From: a virus
Lineage: Duplodnaviria > Heunggongvirae > Uroviricota > Caudoviricetes
DNA: 64,000 nucleotides
Strand: one strand, 5' to 3'
Virus record (IMG/VR): IMGVR_UViG_2718218139_000001
A model generated the notes under the pieces. It was not told where the DNA came from. It searched no databases and saw nothing but the letters and a program-made list of their open reading frames with translations. Of the stretch, positions 36,956 through 39,615 are shown piece after piece (position 1 is the first letter of the stretch; every line of letters starts with the position of its first letter). The translations under genes were made by a program, and so were the position numbers.

Positions 36956-37610
36956 ATCGCCTCAATGAATCGTGATTTATAGAGCGATTTAGCTGTTAGC
37001 CGCGACAGGCGCGGCGGTAAGCATGGCTGGGCCTAGTCCTCCCAGACAAACCACCGAGTTGCCAGGTTGACCATGCGCCTAAGTGGCAACGCCGAAGTGC
37101 GTTACGAGCTTCCAGTTTGCCCATCTTCGGGTGGGCGTTTTTTTCAGGGTTTTCGTCATGGTTAGCGACTTTGCGGCGGTTTAGAAACTGACCATTAAAG
37201 TAAATGCAAACGATGATCTGATGATGGTAGCGGCCTAAGAAACCAGATGCCACGGGGTATGAGTCGTCCCCCGTCAAAAAAATCGACCGCAGAGTGTCCC
37301 CGTCTGTGTATTAGGGAACGGGGAGGCACAACAGGTAAGGGCGCTGGTGTGATTAACCAGATGAACGAGAAGGGGCCATCTGTTGGTCAGCGTCCTTTCC
37401 TGTTGCGTTTTCTTTTCAGCGTAACAGCGGTGCTTAACAGCACTTTGGGTACAGTTCCACGAATTTACGGGTATATCCCGTCATGCTGAAGGCGCTAATC
37501 ACGCTGGAAGCCAGGGTTGTGCATCCCCTGTTACCGAATTGCAGCCAGGGCGCGGTGCGCCGAAAAGCATACGGAGGTGGAAGCCCTCGCCGGAGACGTA
37601 CCCGGCAAGT

Positions 37611-37685
37611 GATGGTGTAGCTCAGCGGTAGAGCAGTTGGCTGTTAACCAACTGGTCGGTGGTTCGAATCCACCCACCATCGCCA
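37611..37685 (+). tRNA. tRNA-Asn (GTT)
   Basis: hand-folded cloverleaf, acceptor GATGGTG/CACCATC, anticodon loop CTGTTAA, T-loop TTCGAAT, CCA encoded. Confidence 0.8.
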
Positions 37686-37690
37686 CTTTA

Positions 37691-37777
37691 GGGGAGTTAG
37701 TCCGTAGGGGTAGCGGGGTAGACTGTAAATCTACTGTCATTGCGACTCGGGTGGTTCGACTCCATCACTCCCCACCA
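37691..37777 (+). tRNA. tRNA-Tyr-like (GTA), type II with long variable arm
   Basis: acceptor GGGGAGT/ACTCCCC, anticodon stem-loop GTAGA-CTGTAAA-TCTAC, 15-nt variable arm, T-arm, CCA encoded; D-arm pairing weak. Confidence 0.5.
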
Positions 37778-37781
37778 AATT

Positions 37782-37857
37782 GCCGGTTTAGCTCAGTTGG
37801 TAGAGCGCCTGCCTTGTAAGCAGGATGTCAGCGGTTCGAGTCCGTTAACCGGCACCA
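37782..37857 (+). tRNA. tRNA-Thr (TGT)
   Basis: acceptor GCCGGTT/AACCGGC, anticodon loop CTTGTAA, CCA encoded. Confidence 0.8.
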
Positions 37858-37861
37858 ACAC

Positions 37862-37944
37862 AACAGGTAAGGGTATTTTGCGACGTCGGAGATCGCCGTG
37901 CTTGGCAGAGGGTTCGAATCCCTACGAAGTACCCTTACCGTTGT
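37862..37944 (+). other. decayed tRNA-like element inside a 14-bp hairpin
   Basis: AACAGGTAAGGGTA ... TACCCTTACCGTTGT stem enclosing a T-arm-like AGGGTTCGAATCCCT; no valid acceptor stem or CCA. Confidence 0.4.
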
Positions 37945-38087
37945 GATGAAGTGCAGCTCTTTGAAGCAACCAGAAGATAAGCATCTGGCTTCACAACATA
38001 AACCGCAGGAACGACCAATAAACGGTAGTCCGTATGGAGAACACCCCGTTGAGGAAGAGGCCTGGCCGGAACCGTAACCGGCACTAC

Positions 38088-38176
38088 AACGTTGAGAACA
38101 CTGGCGTAACGGGGTCATATCCCAATCTACGAATAAATGTTGCGTTGCAGCGTGACAACCAGTGTTCTCAACATTG
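38088..38176 (+). other. long hairpin presenting conserved loop motif TAACGGGGTCATATCCCAATCTAC
   Basis: 17-bp stem AACGTTGAGAACACTGG / CCAGTGTTCTCAACATTG; motif repeated at 38386. Confidence 0.4.
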
Positions 38177-38370
38177 TGGTGAATGCACAGGCTGATGTGC
38201 CGCAACTACAGTAGTGCGCGCTTTGCGGGGCTTGCTACAACCCTGTGTCGGAGTTCAGCACCGACCATCACAGTTTGATTCTCTGGCATGAGCATAACGC
38301 TGAAATAAGTCCAGTCTGGTGCGGCCCGATCACCCGCCGTTAGCTCCACGAAACGGAGCACGTAACAGGT

Positions 38371-38430
38371 AAGAGCATTCTCCTGTAACGGGTTCATATC
38401 CCAATCTACAGGTCCACCAGGAATGCTCTT
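38371..38430 (+). other. second hairpin presenting the same loop motif
   Basis: stem AAGAGCATTCTCCTG / CAGGAATGCTCTT around TAACGGGTTCATATCCCAATCTAC. Confidence 0.4.
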
Positions 38431-38588
38431 TCCGTTGCGGTGAATGCGGCTAAGCGCACGCGGAACAGTTAAAACAATCCTCCTTAATGGTTAAACATTC
38501 CGGCGTTAATTGTTAACTGGTTAACGTCACCGGGAGGCACTCGGCACCGCAATCTAATAAATATGTCACTTTTATTGAGGGATAACCA

Positions 38589-39023
38589 ATGTTCGGTAAA
38601 TTGTTCGGCAAGAAAGTCGCTTCTGCAAAAGTAGAGCTGAAAAAAGTTGAGAATCGCGATCTGATGGAGGCCATCATCGGTGGCTGTTTGTTGGTGTCTG
38701 CCGCTGATGGTGAAATCGAAAAAGAAGAAACAGCGAAACTTGATCAGCTTGTCCGCTCTAATCCGCGTCTTAGTCATTTTGGTAACGAAATTACTGCAAC
38801 AATTACCCGCTTTACCGAGCAACTGGAAGCTGGCTTCCGTGTTGGTCGCATGAATATCCTTCGCGAAATTGAAGATATCAAAAACGATCCAAAAGAAGCG
38901 GAAGAAGTATTCGTTAACATGCTGACAATTGCAGAAGCGGACGGTGAAATCGAGCCAGCAGAACACAAAGTACTGGAAGAAGTAGGCCGTCGTTTAGGTC
39001 TTCGTGTGGAAGATTATCTGTAA
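38589..39023 (+). CDS. tciA: TerB-like tellurite-resistance protein
   Basis: 144 aa; two TerB-type repeats ..AADGEIEKEE.. and ..EADGEIEPAE.. Confidence 0.7.
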   Translation: MFGKLFGKKVASAKVELKKVENRDLMEAIIGGCLLVSAADGEIEKEETAKLDQLVRSNPRLSHFGNEITATITRFTEQLEAGFRVGRMNILREIEDIKNDPKEAEEVFVNMLTIAEADGEIEPAEHKVLEEVGRRLGLRVEDYL

Positions 39024-39187
39024 TGGCAAGCAAGGCACGTATCGCAATCGCCATTGGTTTTCTCTTGCTGTCCGTGCTGGTGGATTTCACCAGCACAATC
39101 CTGTCAGTTTTATCGGACGGGGCGTTGGTGGCAGTAGCTGTAACATTGGTATGGCCGATATTAAAAACAGCTTCTAAGGATCAGTGA
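39023..39187 (+). CDS. small membrane protein (tciB position)
   Basis: 54-aa ORF, start overlaps tciA stop (TAATG); hydrophobic. Confidence 0.4.
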   Translation: MASKARIAIAIGFLLLSVLVDFTSTILSVLSDGALVAVAVTLVWPILKTASKDQ

Positions 39188-39294
39188 TGGGCTTCTGGGA
39201 TTTTGCTGACAAGCATCCAATTGTTCTCGTTGTCATTGCTGGCATAGTTGTAGGCGGTATTGCTGGCGTCATAGAAGCACTCAGGAAACAGTAA
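39187..39294 (+). CDS. small membrane protein (tciC position)
   Basis: 35-aa ORF, ATGA overlap with previous ORF; single hydrophobic helix. Confidence 0.35.
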   Translation: MGFWDFADKHPIVLVVIAGIVVGGIAGVIEALRKQ

Positions 39295-39297
39295 TCC

Positions 39298-39373
39298 GGC
39301 CCTTTAGCTCAGTGGTTAGAGCTGGCGACTCATAATCGCACGGTCACCGGTTCAAGTCCGGTAGGGGCCACCA
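39298..39373 (+). tRNA. tRNA-Ile2 (CAT anticodon, lysidine type)
   Basis: near-identity of anticodon arm GGCGACTCATAATCGC and overall sequence to E. coli ileX as recalled; CCA encoded. Confidence 0.75.
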
Positions 39374-39615
39374 TATTTGGTTGTAACACGGCGTCTGGCA
39401 CATGCGTCGTTAGCGGTCTGGTGACGTTAAAAGGGGGGAACCTTGCCCCTAGCTCAGGCAACGAACCAGGTAGCCGGAATGTGCAAGCCACCGTTTGTTG
39501 TTTCTCGGGTAAAGGGATTCACCATCCTGGCGATTCGGTGTGACAGCCGGGAAGAGTCCGGCGCATTAATCCTGATTTTCTGGTGATGACTCATATCGTT
39601 AGGAGTGATTTGAGT

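Follow-up and report, generated by a model that had tools for sequence, protein, structure and literature searches.

A tRNA array with recurrent spacer hairpins in the ban-operon leader of a P1-like phage-plasmid

Structured RNAs that lie among tRNAs or between genes have been described in several viruses. In phage T4, RNA C (species 1, rnaC) and RNA D (species 2, rnaD) are encoded within the tRNA cluster, on the tRNA strand, and their stable accumulation has been shown experimentally. The early and late mRNAs of T7 carry paralogous intercistronic RNase III hairpins, whose lower stems are imperfect but conserved and whose tops vary; the host enzyme recognises these hairpins, and the RNA ends keep stem-loops that stabilise them. 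The TMERs of murine gammaherpesvirus 68 consist of a tRNA-like unit followed by long hairpins that are freed by tRNA 3'-processing. Accessory or counter-defence tRNAs are known in virulent phages: T5 tRNA-Lys acts against PARIS, and T5 tRNA-Tyr rescues the phage against retron-Eco7 PtuAB (PMC11555353). STnc100 and PasD have been described as base-pairing sRNAs encoded by prophages (bioRxiv 10.64898/2026.05.13.724894).

Layout of the ban-operon leader

We analysed positions 36956-39615 of a 64,000-nt stretch of Caudoviricetes DNA, the whole of which is referred to here as the window. The evidence largely establishes that this interval comes from a P1-like phage-plasmid and forms the long untranslated leader of its C1-repressed ban operon, with all elements on the + strand and arranged as an RNA array of four genuine tRNAs, four spacer hairpins (85-100 nt) and three modules (100-150 nt; Table 1). 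Over the Oban/Pban part, the window and P1 are 98-100% identical. According to the P1 and P7 annotations, Oban/Pban lie upstream and control the tRNAs and ban.

Table 1. Coordinates in the window of the features of the ban-operon leader.
Feature	Position	Strand	Basis
Operator Oban (C1-controlled) and promoters P1ban/P2ban, ban-operon leader start	36928-36957	+	coordinates from NC_005856 annotation
'dicF-like region' of P1 annotation	37052-37153	+	NC_005856 annotation; terminator scan
Spacer hairpin A, hairpin-family member	37326-37411	+	fold z = -4.15; R1 39.2 bits
Small leader hairpin GCCGG-AGACGUAC-CCGGC + AAGU	37589-37610	+	sequence; abuts tRNA-Asn 5' end
tRNA-Asn (GUU), SSU5-like/N4-like allele	37611-37685	+	ARAGORN; RF00005 75.5 bits
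tRNA-Tyr (GUA), type II, A73, encoded CCA	37691-37777	+	ARAGORN; RF00005 41.9 bits, gathering score 29
tRNA-Thr (UGU), P1 allele	37782-37857	+	ARAGORN; RF00005 74.9 bits
P1 'plp'-equivalent ORF, 125 aa	37828-38205	-	ORF list; probably not a gene
Spacer hairpin B, directly after Thr CCA	37858-37949	+	fold z = -5.05; R1; T-arm repeat D4
Module 1, closed by GUUGUGAUG / CACUACAAC	37940-38090	+	module grammar scan; closing-stem covariation
Spacer hairpin D, divergent base type CACUACAACGUUGAG.../...CUCAACAUUGUGGUG	38082-38181	+	inverted repeat I1; fold z = -5.64
Module 2, closed by AUUGUGGUG / CAUCACAGU	38173-38274	+	module grammar scan; closing-stem covariation
P1 'upl'-equivalent ORF, 63 aa	38206-38397	-	ORF list; probably not a gene
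Spacer hairpin C, 24-nt motif copy 2 (38386-38409)	38360-38443	+	fold z = -4.85; R1
Module 3, closed by GUUGCGGUG / CACCGCAA, just upstream of tciA	38434-38552	+	RF02076, sub-threshold
tciA (TerB family), tciB (DUF3927), tciC	38589-39294	+	ORFs; Pfam and PHROG matches
tRNA, anticodon CAU, annotated Ile2 in P1 (Ile2/Met-CAT)	39298-39373	+	ARAGORN; RF00005 64.7 bits
Trailing non-coding module	39374-39615	+	D-arm-like TAGCTCAGG, hairpin GCCGGGAAGAGUCCGGC

Two terminator-like sites lie between Pban and the tRNAs, so that co-transcription from Pban requires read-through or an unmapped promoter. One is the intrinsic-terminator-like hairpin and T-run that a terminator scan placed at the end of the dicF-like region (37118-37146), a region in which Rfam DicF found no match even at E<=10; the other is hairpin A with the T-rich tract TTTTCTTTT that follows it at 37409-37418. 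These two sites are what one would cite for reading the hairpins as terminators or attenuators that limit Pban read-through into the tRNAs and ban. We consider that reading very unlikely, however, as GUGAAUGC... and no U-tract comes after hairpins B, D and C, the same being true of nearly all family members elsewhere, and the lambdoid hairpin lies downstream of the real terminator, tR'.

Both ARAGORN and Rfam RF00005 call Asn-GTT, Tyr-GTA, Thr-TGT and CAT tRNAs, upholding the four tRNAs of the initial annotation, which had itself suggested a tRNA scan. The array is a mosaic in which the Asn-Tyr block is of the SSU5-like/N4 allele and Thr of the P1 allele: tRNA-Asn is 100% identical to that of the SSU5-like L087, 96% to N4 and 89.5% to reference P1, and tRNA-Thr is 98.7% identical to reference P1. 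The CAT tRNA is 100% identical to the P1 trnI gene. The tRNA set varies among relatives (Asn or Arg-UCU, with or without Tyr, Thr, with or without Ser-UGA, Ile2), and the 5' context of the Asn or Arg genes with the leader hairpin motif is conserved.

An accessory tRNA-Tyr gene

In reference P1 and P7 the Asn and Thr genes are adjacent, with no Tyr gene in between, and the Tyr gene is therefore additional relative to canonical P1, as the initial annotation had supposed. Its other suggestion, that the gene had been dismissed, does not hold; it is already listed as tRNA-Tyr by PGAP and in at least one phage record, and the Asn-Tyr-Thr trio is annotated in 267 complete E. coli genomes (RefSeq). 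Nor is the Tyr tRNA new: about one third of P1-like and SSU5-like arrays carry it as an accessory gene. It scored above the RF00005 gathering score (Table 1) and folded into a canonical cloverleaf with a long variable arm. Its anticodon loop, CUGUAAA, is identical to that of the host, and six stem pairs differ from E. coli tyrU in a compensatory manner, so that this accessory tRNA looks functional as far as its sequence can indicate.

The nearest relatives of the gene are in SSU5-like, rV5-like and T4-like phages. Identity is 99% with the P1-like phage Ro157c2YLVW (over window positions 37686-37781), 97.7% with an SSU5-like plasmid, 93% with rV5, 92% with a T4-like phage and 69% with E. coli tyrU. 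On these sequences the Tyr tRNA appears to have arrived jointly with the Asn allele out of an SSU5-like/N4-like array.

Across 54 ORFs of the window, codon frequencies per 1000 were 16.5 for ACA, 11.1 for AUA, 6.1 for AGA and 14.5 for UCA, with 29.3 for Tyr and 44.6 for Asn. Relative to what we take to be E. coli usage, ACA and AUA seem over-used, and for this reason tRNA-Thr (UGU) and Ile2 would suit codon compensation. Codon compensation would not fit the Tyr and Asn tRNAs, which may be better explained, by analogy, as insurance against host tRNA depletion by defence nucleases. Given that the Tyr anticodon loop matches that of the host, any counter-defence effect would come through extra supply and not through resistance to cleavage.

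A hairpin family with conserved arms and variable interiors

Hairpins A, B and C are members of a single family of sense-strand RNA hairpins with the arms CAC-AAC-A-GGUAAGRGYAUUG ... CARUGCYCUUWCC-GUU-GUG, which include a bulged A and usually a U·U mismatch and enclose a variable interior. Folded over 37327-37408, 37859-37945, 38082-38181 and 38361-38440, hairpins A, B, D and C, respectively, were each equalled by 0 of 200 shuffles, and the + strand folded better than the - strand by 4.5-12.6 kcal/mol in 10 of 11 hairpin variants (5.6 kcal/mol for hairpin A). In 30 family members the arms were 92.3% paired, against 39-65% with the partners slid, and double changes were present at eight pairs; none of 500 shuffles reached the observed values. 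Because the search pattern behind many of these members prescribes some arm positions, part of the arm conservation stems from the search itself, and covariation is undersampled. Scores under model R1 were 39-65 bits in sense and, for the most part, 15-33 bits in antisense orientation, with + and - strand scores of 39.2 and 9.7 bits for hairpin A (an R1 seed), 56.7 and 27.2 bits for hairpin B, and 57.4 and 17.9 bits for hairpin C. No further R1 match in the 64-kb window was significant (best other 12.3 bits, E = 0.17), and no Rfam family matched the hairpin family. R1 also found no match on hairpin D, which nevertheless looks like a divergent member; a homologue lies directly 3' of tRNA-Thr in L087.

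The initial annotation had drawn attention to a repeated 12-mer and to two hairpins with a common loop sequence, which it took for a recognition element. The 12-mer, AACAGGTAAGRG, does occur three times (37330, 37862 and 38364, the last having been placed at 38365), compared with 0.4 expected, a count reached in 1 of 100 shuffles; it forms the 5' base of three of the four long hairpins. The shared loop motif is real as well, a 24-mer at 38107-38130 in hairpin D and again in hairpin C (two copies, 0 expected), but there are four long hairpins instead of two, and only D and C have it in common. In the relative L085, 13 nt of the motif are gone. It looks like a degenerate T-arm, judging from GGGTTCATATCCC vs GGGTTCGAATCCC. 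The repeats are not random decay, but the conserved and probably recognised element is the lower stem rather than the loop motif; this stem begins with the 12-mer and defines a hairpin family that extends far beyond P1.

It is largely shown that the family is common to lambda, lambdoid prophages, P1-like and SSU5-like phage-plasmids and several virulent phages. Members occur in sipho-, podo- and myoviruses and in prophage late-operon leaders of many Enterobacterales; among Enterobacterales species representatives we found 26 stretches, every one with a different interior. The 3' arm together with the module start is present in 1140 of 5426 complete E. coli genomes and in 211 phage records, where it is nearly always unannotated or, in a few records, labelled as a hypothetical protein or plp. 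Placement is regular: the last tRNA of each run has a hairpin almost immediately 3', and hairpins start 0-3 unpaired nt past the tRNA CCA or directly after a module. In prophages they lie between holin genes and Q-antiterminator genes (three PHROG families) and begin 7-11 nt past the terminator T-tract, and in lambda the hairpin (44787-44863) directly follows tR'.

The plp label derives from reference P1, in which minus-strand Plp (a putative lipoprotein) and Upl are annotated over the hairpins. ORFs of the corresponding lengths exist on the - strand (Table 1), and Upl matches PHROG families built from P1-like annotations. However, of ~44 P1-like loci only ~10 have an intact plp, cassette indels having split or truncated it in the others; plp has no Pfam or PHROG family and runs antisense to the operon, overlapping tRNA-Thr and hairpins B and D, and hairpin C is overlapped by upl. 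The RNA structure signals account for the conservation, and knock-down of plp or upl gave no phenotype (PMC10695390). A protein-coding reading is therefore extremely improbable, and the plp/upl annotation is probably spurious.

One may postulate instead that the palindromes act as DNA, either as conserved linker or boundary sequences or as MITE-like inverted repeats, with an incidental RNA fold; the arms would then be crossover points for cassette exchange of tRNAs, modules and morons, which is compatible with an RNA role. Individual hairpins are indeed deleted or swapped among relatives, like cassettes that are present, absent or replaced, and the breakpoints lie at the shared arms: B alternates with B', a tandem B-module-B' occurs, and tRNA-Ser plus hairpin E stand in place of mid2 plus C. 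In L014 a deletion between the 24-nt repeats fused D and C with the motif as crossover (L015 has the same D/C pattern in a BLAST table), and the Asn-Tyr/Thr mosaic is of the same kind. Homology between otherwise different prophage Q/terminator modules begins just past the terminator T-tract, and the interior of hairpin E is found within different closing stems in P7, rV5, lambda and ST1UNAM. Yet strand asymmetry is strong, with conserved U·G and G·U pairs that are A·C mismatches on the opposite strand, R1 scores about twice as high in sense as in antisense, and a tRNA and nearby hairpin always on the same strand; pairing is kept by compensatory changes, and we saw neither a transposase nor a target-site duplication. 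Recombination accounts for homologous arms, but not for diverged interiors between nearly invariant ones, and we regard a purely DNA-level explanation as unlikely.

Modules, tRNA relics and a proposed role

The three modules share a 9-bp acceptor-like closing stem, GUUGYGRUG / CAYCRCAAC, that is 98.9% paired with three covarying pairs and a covariation score reached by 0 of 500 shuffles; the same GUUGYG is contested by the module stem and the hairpin base. Module 2 has a D-like hairpin (38185-38200) and a T-like hairpin (38248-38264). Module 3 matched RF02076 (STnc100) at 43.0 bits (gathering score 47; E = 2.5e-7; positions 31-147 of 206), and this piece is also present in lambdoid phages; the STnc100 model matched neither modules 1 and 2 nor any hairpin.

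That tRNA-derived material surrounds the tRNAs, as initially proposed, is borne out. The presumed tRNA-derived fragment at 37862-37944 is hairpin B, which holds a T-arm-like stem-loop (37908-37922) with GGTTCGAATCC identical to the Asn T-arm; the rest is not tRNA-like, and the Rfam tRNA model found no match in it even at E<=10. More generally, the 'decayed tRNA-like hairpins' reduce to T-arm relics in some hairpins and perhaps in modules, as the tRNA covariance model recognises neither. The tRNA pieces reported at 39374-39615 correspond to a conserved non-coding module with a D-arm-like sequence, with no tRNA match and no significant fold (z ~0). Its flanks are homologous in L098 and L109, and its homologue is followed by a family hairpin in some P1 relatives and in Citrobacter and Superficieibacter prophages (R1 matches at the place equivalent to its end in L008, L014, L040 and L084); R1 found no such hairpin after it in the window.

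Such relics could mean that the hairpins and modules are what is left of former tRNA genes, now decaying and functionless. Besides GGTTCGAATCC, some relatives' modules have TAGCTCAG-type D-arms, there are ACCA-like ends, indels are frequent among close relatives, and the entire region is dispensable for laboratory plaque formation (PMC10695390). Neutral decay is nonetheless quite improbable, because arms that hardly vary over many genera and unrelated phage types enclose interiors without any relationship to one another, covariation and strand-specific wobble pairs occur in both hairpin and module stems, and position is fixed relative to tRNA ends and terminators.

Our best explanation, which we hold tentatively and at somewhat less than an even chance, is that the hairpins and modules are processed, end-capping, structure-keeping spacer RNAs in a tRNA/tRNA-like array. 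The whole array would be transcribed as a single precursor and cut by tRNA-processing enzymes at the tRNAs, and perhaps also at the acceptor-like stems of the modules, with RNase P making 5' ends and RNase E and exonucleases making 3' ends. Since the hairpins start right after a CCA, a U-tract or a module, they may cap the newly made RNA ends; hairpins and modules together would keep the 1.6-kb ribosome-free leader fully structured and thus resistant to Rho and RNases, permitting expression downstream (tciABC and ban here, lysis genes in lambdoid phages). Neither end-capping nor 'structuredness' alone explains why ~17 nt per arm hardly vary from genus to genus. A host factor probably acts at the invariant lower stem, as hairpin-carrying phages have no phage protein in common, and RNase III would be the first candidate.

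An alternative scenario is that a hairpin or module is released as a stable, trans-acting sRNA or decoy with the variable apex as its working end. The apex could pair with targets as a seed, in the way of the Hfq-dependent prophage sRNAs STnc100 and PasD, or mimic a tRNA minihelix and so titrate either a tRNA-binding enzyme of the host or a defence nuclease directed at tRNAs. The near-threshold relationship of module 3 to STnc100 points this way, as do T-arm-like apices (hairpin B, variant H, L131, L121, L116, an N4 hairpin and T4 RNA C), interiors that differ per phage between invariant arms like an exchangeable functional cassette, and the discrete RNAs that accumulate for T4 RNA C and D. 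On the other hand, complementary targets of the interiors within the 64-kb window were no better than those of shuffled sequences, most interiors share no motif, and hairpins B, C and D are not followed by a terminator-type 3' end or by anything else that would obviously bind Hfq; we likewise judge a trans-acting role to be unlikely.

Compared with known systems, spacer RNAs of the kind we favour resemble the TMERs in layout only, the latter being a eukaryotic Pol III / RNase Z / Dicer system. The T7 RNase III hairpins are alike in architecture and have no sequence relationship to those of the window, for which cleavage is only predicted; T7 sites separate protein-coding genes, whereas these separate tRNAs or tRNA-like units. 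Like T5 tRNA-Tyr, the phage-borne tRNA-Tyr(GUA) of the window duplicates a host function without support from codon usage; unlike it, the gene resides in a temperate phage-plasmid under repressor control, and a very strong dedicated promoter, on which T5 reportedly depends, is not evident in the window. Module 3 aligns with STnc100 over 38436-38551, including the closing stem and terminal CCGGGAGGCACYCGG hairpin, and shares with it a position upstream of a TerB-like gene, but it falls below the gathering score and covers the model only partially.

The closest precedent is the pair of T4 RNAs, C and D. T4 lacks the arm sequence that is conserved in the temperate-phage family, and R1 found no match in T4 or a T4-like phage and did not match the hairpins of N4, rV5 and T4, so homology with the T4 RNAs is not established; moreover, the P1 hairpins are known from their sequences, in contrast to the demonstrated T4 RNAs. 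Both loci nevertheless combine long hairpins with tRNA relics, the T-arm of RNA C being CCGGGUUCGAAUCCCGG. RNA D starts 1 nt past tRNA-Arg, contains a GAGUAAGG...CUCUUAC hairpin and, in the T4 rnaD sequence, opens with a CCGG-N7-CCGG-UAAGU leader hairpin, the same motif that precedes tRNA-Asn in the window.

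Leader of the ban operon and its tRNAs

The studied interval is the leader of the C1 repressor-controlled ban operon, an assignment transferred from the P1 and P7 records; statements on P1 annotation made here are based on GenBank records. It matches CP012494.1, a 96-kb E. coli plasmid, at 100% identity, and phages P1 and P7 at 96–99%. The order of features runs from dmt through Oban/Pban, a 'dicF-like region', tRNAs, ~700 nt bearing plp and upl on the opposite strand, and tciA-tciB-tciC to a further tRNA and ban. The annotated 'dicF-like region', to which Rfam DicF gave no match, closes with a terminator-like hairpin and T-run, so that Pban, in the absence of read-through, could yield a short sRNA-like transcript. 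Hairpin A, the first of four long spacer hairpins (A, B, D and C in order along the leader), is followed directly on its 3′ side by TTTTCTTTT (37409–37418), a tract without counterpart in other members of its family, and the two could also act, before the tRNAs are reached, as another terminator or attenuator. A reading of the spacer hairpins as terminators draws on the U-tracts seen right after hairpin A and at 37118–37146; such a tract is absent at hairpins B, D and C.

Features of the ban-operon leader in the window
Feature	Position	Strand	Basis or remark
dmt end	36937		precedes Oban/Pban
Pban	about 36928-36957		
Terminator-like hairpin + T-run	37118-37146	+	end of annotated 'dicF-like region', ~190 nt downstream of C1-controlled ban promoters
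Hairpin A	37327-37408	+	folding
tRNA-Asn-GTT	37611-37685	+	ARAGORN, Rfam
tRNA-Tyr-GTA	37691-37777	+	ARAGORN, Rfam
tRNA-Thr-TGT	37782-37857	+	ARAGORN, Rfam
Hairpin B	37859-37945	+	folding
Module 1	37940-38090		between hairpins
Hairpin D	38082-38181	+	folding
Module 2	38173-38274		between hairpins
Hairpin C	38361-38440	+	folding
Module 3	38434-38552		3′ of hairpin C, just upstream of tciA
tRNA CAT	39298-39373	+	ARAGORN, Rfam; identical to P1 gene annotated Ile2
plp, 125 aa		minus	over tRNA-Thr and hairpins B and D; reference P1 annotation
upl, 63 aa		minus	with plp spans hairpins B, D, C; reference P1 annotation

The start of the P1 ban leader (window 37150–37330: TTTTCGT..GCGACTTTGCGG..TTTAGAAACTGACCA..AAATGCAAACGATGAT) is conserved in a Salmonella siphovirus (L093, about 820–900) and, once oriented, in a Rouxiella prophage (L115), both copies lying upstream of hairpin-family members; from this likeness it may be a further shared element. 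Outside the leader, Rfam matches at 17857–18063 and 21521–21695 mark two expected P1-like features: the C4 antisense RNA of P1 immunity, with its a1/b1 targets, and an antitoxin RNA of the sok type (114.9 bits).

The four tRNAs claimed in the initial annotation were each recovered by ARAGORN and by Rfam. Its statement that P1 has three tRNAs, which would make the Tyr gene an addition, agrees with reference P1 and P7, where Asn and Thr lie 2–5 nt apart with nothing between; its alternative, that the Tyr-like gene may have been dismissed previously, was mistaken, since the gene is already annotated as tRNA-Tyr in phage vB_EcoM-Ro157c2YLVW and in RefSeq. The gene scores 41.9 bits on RF00005 (gathering score 29), is called tRNA-Tyr(gta) by the independent finder ARAGORN, and is identical to a sequence that RefSeq annotates as tRNA-Tyr; the annotation of the rV5 homologue gives a Cove score of 43.9. 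In consensus and single-sequence folds the gene forms a canonical cloverleaf of type II, whose acceptor stem has 7 bp and whose variable arm is long. Its 7-nt anticodon loop, CUGUAAA (U33-GUA-A37), is shared with E. coli tyrU, and its 3′ end reads ...CUCCCC-A-CCA, with A73 and an encoded CCA. The cloverleaf, U33-GUA-A37, the long variable arm, and A73 with CCA are identity elements for TyrRS. Six stem pairs carry compensatory changes relative to tyrU, and by these features the window gene is classed as a bacterial tRNA-Tyr of type II.

The Ro157c2YLVW copy, in a P1-like phage, is 99% identical over 37686–37781. Of 5426 complete E. coli genomes, 741 had any match, and in 267 of these RefSeq annotates the Asn-Tyr-Thr trio, nearly always on plasmids; 6 of 43 P1-like IMG/VR loci carried it. 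The closest tRNA-Tyr of those compared is in an SSU5-like phage-plasmid (97.7% identity); rV5 has one at 93% and a T4-like phage one at 92%, whereas E. coli tyrU stands at 69%. The array is mosaic, as its tRNA-Asn matches the SSU5-like allele (100%, against 96% for N4 and 89.5% for P1) and its tRNA-Thr matches P1 (98.7%). N4 has the arrangement Asn, type II tRNA, Thr with similarly short spacers, the middle tRNA being Ser; in relatives, Asn can be replaced by Arg-TCT, and the segment made up of mid2 and hairpin C by Ser-TGA. The same tRNA species recur in rV5 and T4-like phages. Temperate phage-plasmids and virulent coliphages draw on one tRNA pool (Asn, Tyr, Thr-UGU, Ser-UGA, Arg-UCU, Ile2), which the phage-plasmids shuffle as cassettes. 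The tRNA part of the finding is ordinary and annotated in other records. ARAGORN calls a tRNA-Ser(TGA) in P7 (AF503408.1, about 72257–72343; L002 1812–1898) that is missing from the GenBank and RefSeq annotation; this gene, a type II/Sec-like tRNA in Rfam (46.6 bits), is also found in D6 and several IMG/VR P1-like contigs. In D6 (L084, MF356679.1, 1088–1793), Asn, Thr and Ser tRNAs are annotated on the strand opposite to the ARAGORN calls.

Codon usage in 54 window ORFs (per 1000 codons: ACA 16.5, AUA 11.1, AGA 6.1, UCA 14.5) is two to three times that of the E. coli host for these four codons, which fits codon compensation by Thr-UGU, Ile2, Arg-UCU and Ser-UGA. No enrichment is seen for codons of Tyr (29.3) or Asn (44.6). 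In phage T5, a tRNA-Tyr rescues the phage from tRNA-Tyr depletion by retron-Eco7 PtuAB (PMC11555353). Given that rescue and the lack of Tyr enrichment, the window Tyr (and Asn) tRNA may serve as similar insurance against tRNA depletion; as a Tyr tRNA beyond codon need, it gives a testable hypothesis of counter-defence in P1-like elements, a group that often carries resistance genes.

A family of spacer hairpins

The initial annotation had described two long hairpins in the leader; long hairpins are indeed present, but folding gives four, with fold z-scores of −4.2 to −5.6. A 12-mer repeat it listed was recovered at 37330, 37862 and 38364 (originally placed at 38365), three matches against 0.4 expected. 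The repeated 24-nt loop motif is likewise real (two matches, none expected), but its proposed role as a recognition element found no support; the motif is confined to hairpins D and C, and the conserved part of the hairpins is the lower stem. The motif is conserved in the SSU5-like copy of hairpin D and lacks 13 nt in one relative; L014, a related locus, has a D/C fusion deletion with its crossover at the motif, and the BLAST table gives the same D/C pattern for L015. Self-BLAST of the region returned as recurring pieces only a 25-mer, a 15-mer, and T-arm or D-arm pieces, which places the paralogy of the hairpins in their structure and short arms.

The core of the 24-nt motif, GGGKTCATATCCC, looks like a degenerate T-arm. 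T-arm and D-arm pieces would suit a reading, held unlikely, of the hairpins and modules as neutral tRNA debris. Hairpin B, thought initially to be tRNA-derived, gave no match to the tRNA model, and 39374–39615, where further tRNA fragments had been suggested, has no significant fold and no tRNA-model match. Covariation in the hairpin arms counts against this reading. Across 30 members, 92.3% of arm positions pair, compared with 39–65% when partners are slid; eight arm pairs have changed on both sides, and none of 500 shuffles matched the observed values. The bulged A is invariant; 24 of the 30 members keep a U·U mismatch, and 19 a U·G wobble. These figures must be read with the fact that many members were found by a pattern fixing part of the arms, so that arm conservation is partly built in and covariation undersampled.

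The family has paired arms, CACAAC-A-GGUAAGRG... and ...CYCUUWCC-GUUGYG, around a variable interior of 25–85 nt. Scored with R1, a covariance model of the family made from the arms, hairpins A, B and C, all seeds of the model, gave 39.2, 56.7 and 57.4 bits on the plus strand and 9.7, 27.2 and 17.9 bits on the minus strand; the three are members of the family. Hairpin D had no R1 match, and its base, CAACGUUGAG/CUCAACAUUG, is related, shorter, and also found in SSU5-like loci; by inspection, it would represent a divergent subfamily. No further significant R1 match was found across the 64-kb window. Among sequences that were not seeds, R1 gave 61.5, 56.1, 40.6 and 30.6 bits in ASO78B, CU10EC and Bullseye; hairpins are confirmed by the model in a siphovirus of the coliphages, in a podovirus of 73 kb and in a Klebsiella myovirus of 157 kb. 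Sense scores range over 39–65 bits and antisense scores lie mostly at 15–33 bits; the plus strand folds 4.5–12.6 kcal/mol better in 10 of 11 hairpin variants, owing to G·U pairs.

At least eight distinct interiors occur between the same arms in P7, D6, another P1 isolate and IMG/VR loci, and in the genomes so compared the leader consists of interchangeable cassettes. The hairpins could on this evidence, and on that of the L014 crossover, be recombination linkers; against this, the arms covary as paired RNA would. In the P1-like and SSU5-like arrays, the last tRNA of a run is followed after 0–3 unpaired nt by a hairpin stem. The same arms occur in E. coli and Klebsiella phage-plasmids of the SSU5-like type, where they too adjoin tRNAs, in a Salmonella siphovirus, and in phage lambda at 44787–44863, directly past the tR′ terminator and ahead of S. 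Citrobacter, Enterobacter, Kluyvera and Intestinirhabdus prophages have the hairpin flanked upstream by a gene for a Q-like antiterminator, of which three PHROG families are represented, and downstream by a holin gene; the ORF preceding it in prophages of Pantoea and Klebsiella is Q-like by eye. The distance from a terminator T-tract to the start of the hairpin is 7–11 nt across the prophage copies.

When one genome per species was scanned for the exact pattern, 47 stretches came back, of which 26 belong to Enterobacterales (about 20 genera, interiors all different) and 21 are copies of the lambda hairpin, for the most part in taxa where it would not be expected. These 21, identical to lambda over the 73 nt, come from Pseudomonas, Oceanobacillus, Segatella, Bradyrhizobium and other unrelated taxa (L095, L096, L102, L104, L107, L110–L113, L117, L118, L122, L125, L126, L128–L130, L133, L137–L139), on contigs that are tiny, of low coverage, or about 48.4 kb; they are probably lambda spike-in or control DNA contaminating public genomes. 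The 3′ arm with the start of the following module occurs in 1140 of 5426 complete E. coli genomes and 211 phage records; annotation beneath these matches is nearly nil, a few records giving a hypothetical protein or plp.

The spacer hairpins had no family match in Rfam 15. Permissive Rfam scans of the window and 17 related loci left them unmatched as well, giving only sub-threshold or chance matches (mir-142, mir-465, tmRNA fragments, Methylophilales-1), and full-text literature searches, on the arm sequences and on hairpins flanking tRNAs in Stx phages, returned nothing relevant. The spacer hairpins belong to a conserved and widespread, apparently undescribed, family of phage RNAs: roughly one in five complete E. 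coli genomes has it, as does the lambda late leader, and we found no family, name or function for it. In N4, rV5 and T4, the last tRNAs are likewise followed by hairpins of unrelated sequence; because R1 had no match in N4, rV5, a T4-like phage, T4 or lambdoid tciA loci, we do not claim hairpin homology there.

In Klebsiella phage Bullseye (L143, PP738768.1), the 2.4 kb (431–2857) around the family match are annotated as 13 hypothetical proteins of ~32–70 aa and may be a non-coding RNA array. In an Enterobacter pasteurii prophage (L123 4281–4357), an above-threshold isrJ match (51.7 bits) covers the short RNA that runs from promoter to terminator immediately 5′ of the hairpin. Lambda has its 6S RNA at this place, and the Salmonella sRNA IsrJ may accordingly be a late-leader pR′-tR′ transcript.

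Modules between the hairpins and the minus-strand ORFs

The stretches between hairpins are modules of 100–150 nt with a common layout: a 5′ end GUUGYGRUG-AAU, a small hairpin (e.g., GCGCAGGCUGAUGCGC), and at the 3′ end a second small hairpin (e.g., CCGGAGAUCAGCACCGG) followed by CAYCRCAAC. The two ends pair as a 9-bp stem (98.9% paired, three covarying pairs), a layout that recalls a cloverleaf. In some prophages a D-arm of the TAGCTCAG type, the T-arm GGTTCGAGTCC and an end resembling ACCA can be made out by eye in the module; RF00005 matched no module, either in the window (E ≤ 10) or in the loci L116 and L123 (E ≤ 5). The modules may be pseudo-tRNAs. As GUUGYG is common to the hairpin base and the module stem, the two would either compete for it or stack on each other. 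The interior of hairpin E, a P7 variant, lies in lambda inside a module-type stem, GUUGUGCUG/CAGCACAAC, and in rV5 3′ of tRNA-Ser inside a different yet complementary stem, so that cargo and closing stem are both exchangeable. A module in a Citrobacter braakii prophage (L109 6202–6297) resembles Methylophilales-1 far below threshold (30.3 bits, E = 0.037), with the closing stem and a GUGAAUAAGGC start in common; this could be chance, or it could reflect acceptor-stem-closed modules beyond Enterobacterales.

Module 3 (38436–38551) matched STnc100 (RF02076) at model positions 31–147 of 206 with 43.0 bits, below the gathering score of 47, and is a relative of that family, not a member. STnc100 is described as a prophage-encoded sRNA related to PasD (bioRxiv 10.64898/2026.05.13.724894), and the likeness of module 3 to it would favour trans-acting sRNAs or decoys as the products of the array; a search of the window for antisense targets of the hairpin interiors found none beyond shuffled controls.

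If the leader instead held minus-strand genes, these would be plp and upl, both annotated in reference P1. The plp ORF is intact in ~10 of ~44 close relatives, is split elsewhere by cassette indels, and has no Pfam or PHROG protein family; it looks like an artefact laid over structured RNAs. The upl ORF is kept in 31 loci, within near-identical DNA, and matches only P1-derived PHROGs; it is probably an artefact of the same kind. These results correct the reference annotation of the model phage P1, and P7 has in addition an unannotated tRNA-Ser.

Possible function and comparison with known systems

The elements exist and are conserved, strand-specific, covarying and fixed in position. We favour a reading in which hairpins and modules are processed spacer RNAs. 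The array would be transcribed as a unit, and tRNA-processing enzymes would cut at the tRNAs and might also cut the modules at their acceptor-like stems, leaving hairpin-capped ends. Continuous structure would shield the 1.6-kb untranslated leader from Rho and RNases, keeping tciABC-ban (S-R-Rz in lambdoid phages) expressible. As the carrier phages share no common phage protein, the invariant lower stem may be the site of a host factor. Several points count against spacer RNAs of this kind: the leader region is dispensable in the laboratory (PMC10695390), two terminator-like sites (37118–37146 and the T-tract of hairpin A) stand ahead of the tRNAs, and the invariance of the arm sequence is not explained by structure alone. 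As a tentative and rather doubtful proposal, the hairpin (invariant lower stem, bulged A, U·U) and the acceptor-stem modules might together make up an undescribed class of phage RNA element, read by a single Enterobacterales host factor and either punctuating and protecting long untranslated leaders or delivering exchangeable 'cargo' RNAs. The proposed class would occur in lambda, P1 and many other phages; it is absent from Rfam 15 and almost never annotated in the records searched.

Known elements with similar parts were compared. Integron attC sites were considered on account of the AAC...GTT arms, the extrahelical base and the variable centre. The attC R″/R′ consensus is RYYYAAC/GTTRRRY, accompanied by an integron integrase or an array of ORF cassettes. 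ACACAAC and GTTGTGR match it at 6 of 7 positions each; we rejected the identity, as no integrase gene was seen beside the arrays inspected, RNA genes make up the cargo, and attC arms are much less conserved than those of the hairpins. The 3′ arm carries UGCUCUUU (variants GCUCUUAC), e.g., at window 38424–38433 and lambda about 44846–44856, which resembles the boxA of rrn and lambda nut. Its location in operon leaders is suggestive; boxA was set aside as the main explanation, since this stretch of the arm is paired and is exchanged in several paralogues for compensated alternatives. Resemblances to CsrA, Y RNA and CRISPR repeats were also considered and rejected; permissive Rfam scans returned no Y-RNA family.

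The closest likeness in type is to T4 RNA C and RNA D. The window hairpins share with them a place in a tRNA cluster, on the tRNA strand and adjoining a tRNA 3′ end, and the presence of tRNA-derived pieces. R1 found no rnaC/rnaD homology in the T4-like and T4 loci (L090, L091), where short shared motifs were seen by eye only. T4 RNA C and D accumulate in infected cells. RNA C has a T-arm. RNA D starts 1 nt past tRNA-Arg, holds a long hairpin, and begins with a CCGG-N7-CCGG-UAAGU hairpin, the same one that precedes tRNA-Asn in the window. If a host factor does recognise the spacer hairpin, the 50-year-old puzzle of what such extra stable RNAs in phage tRNA clusters do would become approachable with the genetics of lambda and P1.
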